Part shown: one piece after another, positions 15,324-18,266 of the stretch
Layout: every line of letters starts with the position of its first letter
How positions within the stretch are numbered: the stretch's first letter is position 1
NCBI GenBank assembly: GCA_024975835.1
Contig: GCA_024975835.1_4840.2
Reading direction: 5' to 3' (one strand)
Origin: a phage
Length of the DNA stretch: 20,653 bases
Position numbers and translations under genes: made by a program
The notes under the pieces: model-generated
What the model saw: only the letters and a program-made list of their open reading frames with translations
Databases searched by the model: none
Told to the model about the DNA's origin: nothing

Positions 15324-18266
15324 ATGTCAATGCCAAGTTTCCTCCAGTTCATGCAAGAAAGAGATCAGTTGGACGAAGCGTTCAACTCCGCTCCTTATGA
15401 GCTGACCATGGGTAAGAAGAACGCAGGCGATGTGTTCTTTACCTTCATCGATGAAGACGAAAAAGAATTCCGTATTCAATTCTATACCCCACAAGGTCTA
15501 GGCAAGAATGTCCGCCAGGTCTTCATCGGCCAGAAGCGCGGCTCCGTCTATCCTGACGCCATCGCTCGCTTCAAGAACCCAATGCGCGTTATTGCTTCCA
15601 TGATCGAAGCGACCAAACAATTCATGGCGACTCCTCTGGGCAAAACTATCGATGGCTATGCTGTCAACTTCTCGAAGAAAGCGCTGGATCGCGGTATGAC
15701 CCTGATTCCTAAGATCATCCGCCAGTCCGGTCTGAAGCAGAAACTGAATGTCATGGACCTGACCTACGCGCCTGTCCCTGACCGTGGTTATGTGTGGCTA
15801 GTTCGTAAGGGCAAAGATCCGGCTCAGGTATTCGACGGTCCGAAGATGCAGGGTATCACCTGGGATGATCCAGACAAGGTCGGTGACGTTCCGGTTCAGA
15901 ACAATACTCCGGACGTGGGGGCTTCGTCTTCTCACAACAGTTCAGAGGTTGAAGTCAACCGTGATTGGTATAACTCTTCCGACACCAGTCTTAAATTGAA
16001 GAATGGTCGCGACCCGATTCGCGGAAACTACGTCCGCCTGATGAGCGGTTCCCGTGAAGTTGCCACCTTCTATGGCTACAATTTTGATAAATACCCGGAT
16101 AACACAGAAGTATCCTGGAGCATGAAGCGCGGTTTCACCAACCAGGACTTAGTCGGCGCAGACATGTCTAAACAGAAGAAAGGGTTGTATGACCAGTACA
16201 CATTCAAGAAAGGCGGGCAGGTTGTGCTTGTTGTGGATGTTGACACCAGCAATTCATCTTCTGTTGATGATTCCAACGGATGGAAATTAACTTCAAACGG
16301 GGATCAGCCCATGTTGATATGGGCTGGTAAGGAGAGAGGCCGCACGAATACGGCAAATATCGCTCCCCACTACAATGAGCCGGGCGTGTATGTTGGCGCA
16401 TACATGAATGAGAAACCTGTGCGTGGGCAAAGTGCTGATTTCATTGCTCGTCAGTTGAAATTACCACAAGTCCCTATCAGTATCCTGAATGATTTCACCA
16501 CGGCGTCCACAAAATTTTGGAAAGGTTCTCAACAGAAATCTGCGCCTGTTGTGCCGGCAGGTTCGGACAGAAATAACCCAGCCAACATTATCGGTTCTGG
16601 AACTGCTGTTATTGATGCCAAACGACTTGGTGCTCGGGAAGTAAACGTGGAACGATTCAAAAACGGCGTTCGCATGCGTTCTCAAAACGGTGACGTCGAC
16701 ATCAGTATTTCTGACCCAGACTTTTCAAATGCAGCAAGTGTGGCTGATGCTGCCACAGCCTCTGTTGTGGTCAAGAACGGGCGTTACGAAGGTGCCATCA
16801 ATTCAAAGCGCAAGATTGCCCGCACCTCGAACGAGCAGGGTACTGAATGGGATATTATCGGCGTCAACGGGGAAATCCTTGTCTCTATCAAGTTGAACAA
16901 AGTGTCTAAATCCGCATCAGATTCGACCGAGGGTGCAACCAGTGTTGATCAATTACGTGACAGTGGTTTCATCGCTCGTGTTCTGGGTATCATTGATACC
17001 AACGTTGGGCTGGACACTTCTATTCTTCCTGGTGAAAACATCCGTCGCGTGGGCGCTGGTCGTTACACGACGGCAGGCGGGTTGGTTATCGTTGTCAACT
17101 TCACAAACGTCCTCGCTGGTTTCGTTCAATACTCAGTTTTCAGCGAAATTGCTGAAGAGGAGAACGTGGCCAAAGGTAGCGCCCGTGACGTCGCCAAGGC
17201 GGTAATTGCGTCCATCTTTGAGGTTGCTAAGACCCAGTACACTGGCAAATGGGAAATTAGCGCAGTGCCAACAAGCGCTCCATATCCTATCAAAGCCATT
17301 CGCCGTTCTCGGGGCTGGGGTTATGTGGAAACCGCAAACTGGACTCTGACAGTGTCCGACGCTGTCCTGAATCGTGTGAAGCCAGGGAAAACTGCTCTAC
17401 TGGAACTCATCAAAGAACCTCCGCGTGGCAAGCACCCGCTGGAAATCATCCCAGAGAAGGGCGACAAGACCCTGATGCTGAAAGATCGTATTACCGGGGC
17501 CATCTATGGTTCTATCGACCTGAATGCCCAAGGCGCTGATCTGGTCAACTCTGGAACCCTGAAGATACCAAGCAACGCCATGGTGTTTGGTGAGACTGTC
17601 AACGGTATGTCCATTCGGTGGGATGTCAATTTCCCCGAAACGGGAAAATACGCCGGTACTTCTATGATAACCAACGTGACCTATTACTACGACAAAGGTA
17701 AAGTTGCATTCACCCCAATTGTCTCTCAGAAAGGGCGTACCCTGAACAATCCGAAGACATATGAACTTCCTTTAAACAAAGATATGGTCCAGAGTGTGAT
17801 TGATGAGATTTCATCAAAAATGGTATATCTTTCCAGAAACCTCCAACAGTTGAAAAGTCAGTCATACAACCCAAACCAGGTGTTCTTGAACGATATAACC
17901 ATCACGGATAAAGGTGAAGTGATTTGGAATGATTACAACTTGTCTGACGGCAAAGTTACACAAATTATGCTGTCCATGATAAGCGCAGAAAATAAACGCC
18001 TAGAGAAAGTGGCAAACAAGCCGGATATCAATATCACATTGCCAAAGAAACAAGCTGAAGTGGTAGAATTTATAAACCGGATGATTGACATTGATCTCAC
18101 CCCTTATGTGAGAACCCCCAAAAAACGTGATGTGGTATTATTTGACTCTTCTGAATTGTCGATAAACCAACTCAACAACATAGAACGCCTGGGAAGAGAA
18201 ACAGGAAAATGGTCTCTTCAGTCAAACGGCGGTATGGGTCATGCACTATTCCTGAATGTTTGGTGA
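15324..18266 (+). CDS. large orphan protein (980 aa); possible packaged/injected virion protein
   Basis: Uninterrupted 2.9-kb ORF with SD GGAG upstream. No nucleotide-binding or catalytic motifs recognised. N-terminus MSMPSFLQFMQERDQLDEAF loosely resembles T4 internal-protein targeting sequences. Ser/Asn/Gly-rich middle segments. Confidence 0.75.
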   Translation: MSMPSFLQFMQERDQLDEAFNSAPYELTMGKKNAGDVFFTFIDEDEKEFRIQFYTPQGLGKNVRQVFIGQKRGSVYPDAIARFKNPMRVIASMIEATKQFMATPLGKTIDGYAVNFSKKALDRGMTLIPKIIRQSGLKQKLNVMDLTYAPVPDRGYVWLVRKGKDPAQVFDGPKMQGITWDDPDKVGDVPVQNNTPDVGASSSHNSSEVEVNRDWYNSSDTSLKLKNGRDPIRGNYVRLMSGSREVATFYGYNFDKYPDNTEVSWSMKRGFTNQDLVGADMSKQKKGLYDQYTFKKGGQVVLVVDVDTSNSSSVDDSNGWKLTSNGDQPMLIWAGKERGRTNTANIAPHYNEPGVYVGAYMNEKPVRGQSADFIARQLKLPQVPISILNDFTTASTKFWKGSQQKSAPVVPAGSDRNNPANIIGSGTAVIDAKRLGAREVNVERFKNGVRMRSQNGDVDISISDPDFSNAASVADAATASVVVKNGRYEGAINSKRKIARTSNEQGTEWDIIGVNGEILVSIKLNKVSKSASDSTEGATSVDQLRDSGFIARVLGIIDTNVGLDTSILPGENIRRVGAGRYTTAGGLVIVVNFTNVLAGFVQYSVFSEIAEEENVAKGSARDVAKAVIASIFEVAKTQYTGKWEISAVPTSAPYPIKAIRRSRGWGYVETANWTLTVSDAVLNRVKPGKTALLELIKEPPRGKHPLEIIPEKGDKTLMLKDRITGAIYGSIDLNAQGADLVNSGTLKIPSNAMVFGETVNGMSIRWDVNFPETGKYAGTSMITNVTYYYDKGKVAFTPIVSQKGRTLNNPKTYELPLNKDMVQSVIDEISSKMVYLSRNLQQLKSQSYNPNQVFLNDITITDKGEVIWNDYNLSDGKVTQIMLSMISAENKRLEKVANKPDINITLPKKQAEVVEFINRMIDIDLTPYVRTPKKRDVVLFDSSELSINQLNNIERLGRETGKWSLQSNGGMGHALFLNVW

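Follow-up and report, generated by a model that had tools for sequence, protein, structure and literature searches.

Results

A 980-residue protein encoded in an Ackermannviridae replication region

The window analysed here is a 20,653-nucleotide stretch of phage DNA (contig GCA_024975835.1_4840.2), and the gene under study, at 15324–18266, encodes a protein of 980 residues. The window is ~50% G+C, its genes lie almost all on the plus strand, and by the list of open reading frames (ORFs) and their PHROG and Pfam matches it carries a replication/recombination block of the T4-like type; it is an Ackermannviridae replication region. The 980-aa ORF starts with ATG, is uninterrupted, has AGGAG 8 nt upstream and is accompanied only by competing ORFs of ≤74 aa on either strand. 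It is a real gene and, as the initial annotation of this DNA had stated, the largest one in the window by the ORF list. The precursor has a calculated mass of ~107–108 kDa, and the predicted mature form (residues 19–980) one of 106 kDa with a pI of 9.2. The same annotation had seen no ATPase, nuclease or polymerase signature, and this was borne out: a full-length Pfam scan returned noise only (Lectin_C_term, E 0.18), and a PDB sequence search found nothing at E ≤ 10.

The protein had also been called an orphan, which did not survive wider searching. In a 5.8-billion-protein database 274 homologues were found at E ≤ 1e-3, with lengths of 541–1208 aa; those carrying names are all labelled ‘hypothetical’ and come from Ackermannviridae phages or from bacterial assemblies evidently containing such phages. 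Megablast of 15324–18266 matched 201 phage records, nearly all Ackermannviridae, from phages of Salmonella, Klebsiella, Dickeya, Escherichia and Shigella (best DNA match: Escherichia phage YX22, 93.7% identity over the full length). The N-terminal domain (N-domain) recurs in ~80 further 50%-identity clusters.

Presence and absence along the protein were counted over the best 120 of the 274 homologues. Residues 1–200, 320–400 and 540–900 are constant parts in this set, and residues 200–320, 400–530 and 900–980 are facultative. Identity over residues 1–190 exceeds 85% across the listed close Ackermannviridae homologues. The window protein, at 980 aa, compares with 795 aa in phage Sajous1 and ~530 aa in Limestonevirus, and the LIMEstone1 orthologue keeps the N-domain with a largely different remainder. 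Two additional inserts and a C-terminal end resembling the T-even protein Ip9 distinguish the window protein, a longer mosaic variant, from these shorter orthologues.

A predicted Alt-type domain at the N-terminus

phmmer, run exhaustively against 1.84 billion cluster representatives, gave 93 matches, ~80 of which were confined to residues ~5–200 and lay always at the extreme N-terminus of proteins of 300–1440 aa. Five of 64 N-domain proteins carry PF03496 (ADP-ribosyltransferase exoenzyme) together with a match to the PHROG ‘Alt-like RNA polymerase ADP-ribosyltransferase’, and the ADP-ribosyltransferase (ART) domain of T4 Alt matches four of these five. One PF03496-bearing protein, P0185 (580 aa, N-domain plus ART), is encoded beside gp23, T4_CASP (gp22), Peptidase_S77 and portal genes. 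On its T4-like metagenomic contig (L006 616–3968) P0185 is followed, in the same head-gene neighbourhood, by a 516-aa protein without a Pfam match.

Residues 1–202 were modelled with AlphaFold2 (AF2) from an 81-sequence alignment (mean predicted local distance difference test, pLDDT, 82.9; predicted template-modelling score, pTM, 0.76). When this model was compared with BFVD by Foldseek, the protein's own family ranked first and was followed by the Alt proteins of Aeromonas phiAS5, Escherichia HY03, Shigella SP18, Citrobacter CF1 and Acinetobacter Henu6 (E 6e-7 to 1e-5, template-modelling score, TM, 0.56–0.60, 168–193 aligned columns). Proteins named for deaminase and ParB/Srx domains were also among the matches. 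Vibrio phage VP-1 is represented in the BFVD results by two N-domain proteins, so at least one phage has more than one copy.

An Alt N-terminal family of 14 sequences was assembled from 10 phage records and aligned by hhalign with the 82-sequence N-domain family. The two families matched with a probability of 96.4% (E 1.2e-9) over 181 collinear columns, which paired window residues 13–196 with T4 Alt residues 1–198; 12 column-shuffled controls gave E 0.14–0.69 over ≤29 columns. A homologue search from the Alt N-terminus returned only four proteins, and a scan of IMG/VR only close relatives. The profile-profile and structure searches by domain proposed in the initial annotation thus converge on Alt, and we conclude, on profile and model comparison, that residues 19–190 form a homologue of T4 Alt's N-terminal domain.

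The enzymatic part of Alt is not shared. Neither PF03496 nor any other ART was found in the 980-aa protein by Pfam (E ≤ 1) or PHROGs, in a scan that recovered PF03496 from T4 Alt at 5.8e-36 and from P0185 at 1e-18. Because the ART domain is absent, the protein stands outside the Alt enzyme family and shares only its N-terminal module. The precomputed annotation places PF26846 on Alt N-terminal fragments (P0213, P0214); it gives no Pfam family for the listed homologues of the window protein.

A leader ending in a conserved L-x-E motif

The N-terminus reads MSMPSFLQFMQERDQLDE/AF, where the slash follows the L-x-E site L16-D17-E18. Among 81 family members the leader is ~5 to 60 residues long and variable in sequence, and it is the low-confidence part of the AF2 model (pLDDT 51–60). 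The junction at its end is a near-invariant [LIV]-x-E-[AS]-F-[ND]-[ST]-x-P-Y motif in the 81-sequence alignment, with L, I or V at P3 in 74 members and E at P1 in 79. All 14 Alt N-termini have [LI]-[NT]-E-[VLA]-[FL]-[DE] at the aligned place, and in the hhalign alignment E18 of the window protein pairs with E6 of T4 Alt (I4-T5-E6; ITE6/LFDE). The GenBank entry X15811 states of alt that ‘6 amino acids cleaved off in a step of posttranslational processing’. In T4, gp21 trims short N-terminal peptides off IPI–III and Alt, after Glu in a short motif (PMC9958956, PMC9026906). LIMEstone1, itself a member of the Ackermannviridae, encodes Peptidase_S77 (E 1.5e-30), a T4_CASP scaffold and Gp23. The L-x-E site pointed out in the initial annotation therefore aligns with the recorded Alt cleavage site, and cleavage of the window protein by the prohead protease after L16-D17-E18 is predicted from this alignment.

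The leader stretch SFLQFMQE resembles xYQEFIAE, having an aromatic residue at position 2, F at 5, a hydrophobic residue at 6 and E at 8; it is offset, and many family members have short leaders without such a stretch. Internal processing of the polyprotein type was considered and gained no support: the protein has only nine [LIV]-x-E sites, approximately the number expected by chance from a rough amino-acid-frequency estimate, and none lies in an obvious linker before the Ip9-like module.

A mosaic remainder with an Ip9-like end

The core (aa 540–900) is confidently predicted to fold, and the prediction matches neither a known fold nor an enzyme. A Foldseek search of PDB with the model of residues 190–980 gave no credible match (top PCNA and HemS, TM ≤ 0.1). 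No catalytic domain was recognised in the 980-aa protein by Pfam, PHROGs or fold search, and no MuF domain or catalogued polyvalent effector domain by Pfam or PHROGs.

In the C-terminal module, residues 905–978 match phrog_7673, ‘internal head protein’ (E 4e-10), and tblastn of the module found ip9 at 31–39% identity (E 1e-7 to 2e-5) in >150 T-even-like genomes, many of whose records annotate the matched gene as ‘internal head protein’ or ip9. Ip9 of phage VR7 starts with a capsid-targeting-like leader, MKTFNELFNE. By these sequence comparisons, the last 80 residues of the window protein have a homologue in Ip9, which in T-even-like phages is a putative internal head protein. The G+C content at third codon positions (GC3) drops stepwise from 0.61 in the N-domain through 0.47–0.57 in the middle to 0.40 in the last 81 codons, the Ip9-like ones; that of neighbouring genes is ~0.62–0.65. 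The steps are consistent with modules of different origin, and the value of 0.40 suggests import of the Ip9-like module from a low-GC T-even-like phage. Basic character has been described for T4 internal proteins (PMC9026906), and the mature 980-aa protein shares it.

Orthologues are virion components

Evidence from virions comes from orthologues in other Ackermannviridae phages, orthology having been checked by alignment and synteny. The syntenic orthologue in Sajous1 is gp214 (MW021757, 151641–154028), which is preceded by ‘RegB’/SLT-like, DUF7270 and small genes and followed by TOBE-like and ferritin-like genes and the primase. Identity between the two proteins is 87% over aa 1–192, 62% over aa 311–400 and 35% over aa 540–902. 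In CsCl-purified Sajous1 virions gp214 was represented by 196 spectra, among the five best-represented proteins, and its neighbours gp211, gp215, gp216 and gp217 by 31, 32, 20 and 10 spectra, respectively (PMC10892097). In the LIMEstone1 record a frameshift divides the orthologous gene into ORF082 and ORF081. Unique peptides numbered 4 for ORF082 and 23 for ORF081 (coverage 55%), and both are listed as ‘confirmed structural proteins’; ORF078, ORF080 and ORF085 were confirmed likewise, and the authors remarked on the unexplained structural-protein cluster ORF78–85 (PMC3296691). The Vi01 orthologue, CBW37962, carries the name ‘phage associated protein’. The virion proteomics that the initial annotation had recommended is thus already available for orthologues, and it detects them plus the neighbouring small proteins (PMC10892097, PMC3296691). 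On this evidence the gene family of the window protein is a virion component.

A frameshift splits the orthologue in two deposited genomes, LIMEstone1 (HE600015, L004 9416–11012) and Shigella phage Ag3 (orf110/110.1/109). The LIMEstone1 split falls at about residue 104, within the N-domain, and both fragments were nonetheless detected in virions. The splits may reflect errors of sequencing, a gene that is truly split, or frameshifting during translation.

Hairpins and promoters around the gene

The modules of the protein and the genes and signals that surround it are collected in Table 1.

Table 1. Positions of the 980-aa gene, its modules and surrounding features in the window
Feature	Position	Strand	Basis or remark
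Helicase	5402–7120		Replication block
gp55 late sigma factor	8469–9260		Replication block
gp47 (SbcD-like)	9247–10362		Replication block
gp46 (SbcC-like)	10355–12700		Replication block
Terminator-like hairpin AAAGGGGC-TTTT-GCCCCTTT	14822–14841	+	-14.2 kcal/mol, z = -4.4, 0/200 shuffles as good
Sigma-70-like promoter candidate TTTACT-17-TATACT	14839–14867	+	Directly 3' of terminator; 9/12 matches, consensus match only
Upstream gene, 111 aa, phrog_9866	14916–15251	+	PHROG match to residues 29–139 of longer ORF call
Weak bulged stem-loop (upstream hairpin of the initial annotation)	~15256–15272	+	-10.1 kcal/mol, z = -0.55
CDS of 980-aa protein	15324–18266, stop codon included	+	ORF list, translation, phrog_3867 at E 3e-303
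Predicted N-terminal propeptide (aa 1–18)	15324–15377	+	Leader MSMPSFLQFMQERDQLDE
Alt-N-type domain (aa 19–190), pI 9.5	15378–15893	+	Constant part of the family, proposed head-incorporation module
Variable insert 1 (aa 191–319), beta-rich	15894–16280	+	Minority of homologues; coverage 40–89/120; low model confidence
Conserved module (aa 320–400)	16281–16523	+	In 105–110/120 homologues; 62% identity to Sajous1 gp214
Variable insert 2 (aa 401–539), beta-sandwich-like	16524–16940	+	In ~64/120 homologues; pLDDT 75–90 over aa 422–525
Conserved core (aa 540–900), repeated alpha+beta sandwich modules	16941–18023	+	No recognised enzyme fold
Ip9-like C-terminal module (aa 901–980)	18024–18263	+	phrog_7673, tblastn to ip9
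Terminator-like hairpin AAGCCCC-TTCG-GGGGCTT	18291–18308	+	Directly after stop codon of 980-aa gene
T4-type late promoter, exact TATAAATA	18308–18315	+	Serves downstream small gene rather than 980-aa gene
Small late protein, 106 aa, phrog_4048	18341–18661	+	N-terminus MKPFIEYFKE/Q, capsid-targeting-like, of T4 internal-protein type
Ferritin/Dps-like DUF5856 protein, 117 aa	18760–19113	+	PF19174 at E 1e-29
Primase	19278–20414		Replication block

The gene had been described as bracketed by stem-loops, and this held on one side only. The downstream hairpin has a perfect 7-bp stem and a TTCG loop (-13.1 kcal/mol, z = -3.2, 1/200 shuffles as good). The stem-loop proposed upstream lies within chance, because 47/200 shuffles fold equally well. 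The upstream boundary of the transcription unit holding the 980-aa gene is probably the hairpin at 14822–14841; the LIMEstone1 record has a terminator and a ‘putative middle promoter’ annotated at the site equivalent to 14822–14867.

The late-promoter sequence TATAAATA occurs in exact form twice in the window, at 7920–7927 (-) and 18308–18315 (+), with 0.2 copies expected, and both copies stand directly upstream of genes with virion-protein orthologues. The TTCAAT-N14-TATAAT motif reported for phage EspM4VN was not found in the window. At three places late-promoter-like motifs lie in, or adjoin, terminator hairpins: at 13466–13487 (GGGCAC-TAAATATCAC-GTGCCC, the loop containing CTAAATA), at 18291–18315 (AAGCCCC-TTCG-GGGGCTT followed at once by TATAAATA) and at 18715–18738 (AATCCCCC-TAAATAC-AGGGGGATT). 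Each precedes a gene with a virion-protein orthologue. The arrangement recalls the ‘CTAAATAcCcc’ motif of EspM4VN (PMC7283392) and may be a combined stop/late-restart signal.

Neighbouring genes

The 111-aa gene upstream is probably co-transcribed with the 980-aa gene; its orthologue, LIMEstone1 ORF084, is not listed as virion-detected in either proteome. Downstream, the initial annotation had placed a small late gene with a clearer targeting sequence, and both the N-terminal MKPFIEYFKE of the 106-aa protein and the exact TATAAATA upstream of its gene agree with that description; its orthologues Sajous1 gp215 and LIMEstone1 ORF080 are among the virion proteins listed above. So are those of the ferritin-like protein (gp217 and the ‘confirmed structural protein’ ORF078), whose gene is preceded by the CTAAATA-containing hairpin at 18715–18738. 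LIMEstone1 ORF079, the orthologue of Sajous1 gp216, starts MKGFQDFLLKE. With capsid-targeting-like leaders and virion orthologues among the neighbours, the locus looks like an internal-protein island in the replication region.

This internal-protein-like locus is itself variable. The small leader-bearing protein has 106 aa in the window and 189 aa in Sajous1 (L003 14080–14898) and LIMEstone1 (L004 8541–9359), and a 79-aa protein with a similar leader (MKGFQDFLLKE), encoded next in the relatives, has no counterpart in the window. Between the ferritin-like gene and the primase (19113–19360) the window also has neither the ~204-aa ORF nor the F-LimV-like homing endonuclease present in YX22 (L001 19796–21063) and LIMEstone1 (L004 6809–8079).

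Two further genes of the window have orthologues in virions. The gene at 13556–14170 is called ‘RegB’ or ‘RNA endonuclease’ in related records; its product has a signal-peptide-like start (MTMTTLKAMALSVTFTIASGNVHA) and a weak SLT transglycosylase match (E 4e-4), its Sajous1 orthologue is gp211, and the RegB label is doubtful. The gene at 7117–7884 stands alone on the minus strand among replication genes, behind the exact TATAAATA at 7920–7927 (-). In LIMEstone1 its orthologue, ORF093, was covered to 41% and is listed as a ‘confirmed structural protein’, which makes it another unexplained virion protein outside the structural module.

Discussion

A probable capsid-internal protein on the plan of Alt

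We consider it probable that the 980-aa protein is a capsid-internal protein built on the plan of T4 Alt, which is loaded into the head, trimmed after E18 and expelled with the DNA, and which carries a different, non-enzymatic and fast-evolving cargo. The precursor would be made with its 18-residue leader, and leader and Alt-type domain (aa 19–190) together would direct it to the prohead, into the scaffolding core of T4 type. The S77 (gp21-type) prohead protease would then cut after L16-D17-E18 and expose the mature N-terminus AFNSAPYEL. The mature protein would be retained in the DNA-filled head, a step in keeping with the relatively high spectral or peptide counts of its orthologues among virion proteins, and would be expelled together with the genome at infection. 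The cargo, composed of the mosaic beta-rich inserts, the conserved core (aa 540–900) and the Ip9-like end module, would come into play early in infection of the host, and its most plausible mode of action would be the binding of host or defence proteins, not catalysis. With the leader-bearing small proteins encoded downstream, the gene would make up a locus of packaged proteins, comparable to the hypervariable loci in which T-even phages encode their internal proteins.

The ORF, the domain homologies, the conservation of the motif, the presence of orthologues in virions and the occurrence of the S77 protease, the T4-type scaffold and gp23 in the family are established. The initial annotation had suggested a packaged-effector module comparable in role to Alt or the internal proteins. 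Packaging in an Alt- or internal-protein-like role is now supported by four independent lines: virion proteomics of orthologues, the Alt-N homology, the aligned L-x-E site and the Ip9-like end. Ejection and effector function are the parts of that suggestion that we infer. Homology to a tail or baseplate protein, and absence from virions combined with early expression, had been named as observations that would speak against it; no such homology was found, and the orthologues are present in virions.

Several points weigh against the reading preferred here. Its later links, namely a head rather than tail location, cleavage, ejection into the host and activity of the cargo, are inferred, and the word ‘effector’ rests on analogy because the cargo contains no recognisable effector domain. 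Comparisons with T4 Alt as a single sequence are insignificant (BLASTP against T4 Alt alone, E 0.58; profile against the single Alt sequence, E 0.06), and for that reason the family-versus-family profile alignment and the structure comparison were needed. The gene sits amid replication/recombination genes rather than head genes. T4 alt is a late gene (PMC9697503), and between the terminator at 14822 and the start codon of the 980-aa gene neither TATAAATA (exact, or intergenic with one mismatch) nor CTAAATA was found; the nearest candidate promoter is sigma-70-like or ‘middle’. Read-through into the gene from upstream late promoters is possible. Finally, gp214 bears the label ‘tail completion protein’ in PMC10892097.

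Alternative roles

The protein might lie inside the head and yet have no target in the host, serving a structural or mechanical role (organisation of DNA, plugging or priming of the portal, an aid to ejection) in the manner of inner-body or core proteins of other phages; packaging and processing would be the same. High spectral and peptide counts of the orthologues, the large size and basic nature of the protein (pI 9.2), a core kept in most of the close Ackermannviridae homologues listed, without a catalytic signature, and the absence of a recognisable effector domain would all suit such a role. We nevertheless regard it as unlikely. The cargo is strikingly mosaic, with variable inserts and, in LIMEstone1, replacement of nearly everything after the N-domain, which is unusual for an essential part. 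Elsewhere the N-domain fronts an ART and, apparently, deaminase and ParB/Srx domains, which are meaningful only inside a host; the C-terminal module belongs to a hypervariable class of internal proteins; and T4 particles can be assembled without Alt and the internal proteins (PMC9958956).

A tail, baseplate or fibre-associated protein, in which a conserved N-terminal anchor would carry a variable distal part as in a receptor-binding protein, is a markedly less probable alternative. The conserved N-terminus followed by a mosaic middle and C-terminus does resemble tailspike and fibre architecture, the variable inserts are beta-rich, and Table 6 of PMC10892097 supplies the ‘tail completion’ label. 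However, Pfam, PHROG, PDB and fold searches showed no similarity to tail, baseplate or fibre proteins, gp3 and gp15 included; the N-domain is homologous to capsid-internal Alt and not to tailspike anchors; the four tailspikes of the family are encoded elsewhere; and neighbouring genes bear capsid-targeting-like leaders. We did not adopt the label, for which we found no support: GenBank calls gp214 hypothetical, and the same Sajous1 dataset contains a gp3-type ‘proximal tail completion’ protein as a separate entry. The ‘ferrojan horse’ operon reading of these genes was likewise not adopted, since it is built on low-confidence Phyre matches and its own TonB/FeoB test was negative (PMC10892097).

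That the product is a non-virion replication or recombination accessory protein, encoded between gp46/47 and primase and detected in virions through carry-over contamination, is very improbable: the neighbourhood (helicase, gp55, gp47, gp46, primase), the sigma-70-like rather than late upstream promoter and the few obvious low-count contaminants in the Sajous1 and LIMEstone1 virion lists would fit, but the orthologues were detected in two independent proteomes with 196 spectra and with 23 unique peptides at 55% coverage, against 1–5 for replication-protein contaminants, the Alt-N and Ip9 homologies point elsewhere, no nucleic-acid enzyme domain was found, and other genes of the same stretch have late promoters and are virion proteins.

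What is new and why it matters

As a virion component the gene family was known before, though unnamed and without an assigned function or location save for the unsupported ‘tail completion’ label: the ‘unknown structural’ or ‘phage associated’ proteins of Ackermannviridae (phrog_3867) are the same family in the same genomic position as the window gene. The homology of its N-terminus to Alt-N, the alignment of the cleavage sites, the Ip9-like end and the idea that the Alt-type domain serves as a reusable carrier of diverse cargos are new; no description of these points was found in the literature searched. In that literature, entry of Alt into the head is not tied to a defined domain, and only the 10-residue targeting sequence of the internal proteins has been dissected. 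The first ~190 residues of Alt now appear as a conserved, foldable domain that is reused before different cargos in Ackermannviridae and many T4-like phages, which gives a concrete hypothesis of a modular delivery domain.

A tentative extension, which we hold to be possible though not favoured, is that the Alt-type N-domain is a portable load-and-eject module across T4-like lineages, and that the 980-aa protein is a carrier of several modules, whose conserved core of new fold and Ip9-like end are non-enzymatic inhibitors of host defence or of the targets of host takeover. Such a module may, with [LIV]-x-E processing, carry many unrelated cargos in Straboviridae, Ackermannviridae and related Vibrio, Aeromonas and Erwinia phages.

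The Alt-type reading would account for the cluster of abundant ‘unknown structural proteins’ in Ackermannviridae proteomes since 2010–2012, and it would correct the ‘tail completion’ and ‘ferrojan horse operon’ interpretation. Ackermannviridae phages (CBA120, Vi01 relatives, the LIMEstone phages) are in use, or have been proposed, for biocontrol and therapy, and their injected proteins are likely post-adsorption, anti-defence determinants of host range. The mosaic cargo, with a confidently folded core for which no structural relative is known, is a place where new anti-defence activities may be found.

Comparison with known systems

The closest counterpart is T4 Alt, the capsid-packaged RNA polymerase ADP-ribosyltransferase, with its Straboviridae relatives (phrog_802). 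Both proteins are large and found in virions (the window protein through its orthologues), both begin with a homologous N-domain of ~175–190 residues, and both have a short leader ending in [LI]-x-E at the aligned position. Both also occur in phages with an S77 protease, a T4-type scaffold and a gp23 head system, and the ART type of Alt is borne by some members of the window protein's N-domain family. They differ in that Alt has its ART, whereas the window protein has no PF03496 and no similarity to Alt beyond residue 200. The Alt leader has 6 residues and that of the window protein 18. T4 alt is a late gene adjoining baseplate genes; the window gene lies among replication genes without a late promoter of its own. 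The PHROGs of the N-domains are different as well (3867 for the window protein, 802 for Alt), and PF26846 is recorded for the Alt fragments but not for the listed homologues of the window protein.

Among the T-even internal proteins (IPI, IPII, IPIII and the putative Ip5–Ip14 types), Ip9 of RB32, VR7 and IME08-like phages is closest, its mature part being homologous to the last 80 residues of the window protein (31–39% identity). The internal proteins share their type of leader with the downstream 106-aa protein (MKPFIEYFKE, as against MKTFNELFNE of VR7 Ip9), and their loci are hypervariable between related phages, as the window locus is. They are, however, stand-alone proteins of ~8–20 kDa with a 10-residue capsid targeting sequence, whereas the Ip9-like module of the window forms the C-terminus of a 107-kDa fusion, for which the Alt-type N-terminus presumably provides the targeting.

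The polyvalent, MuF- or portal-anchored effectors (Iyer et al. 2017, PMC5512222), which have at least two recognisable effector domains per polypeptide, follow the same logic, a constant head-incorporation domain joined to interchangeable delivered cargo. Their typical cargos (ART, deaminase, ParB/Srx) recur behind the window N-domain, the latter two as judged from BFVD names. The likeness is one of logic only: the anchor is MuF in those proteins and Alt-type in the family described here. If the portable-module proposal is true, the Alt-anchored proteins would constitute a second family of injected effectors with modular build, beside the polyvalent proteins that use MuF as their anchor.

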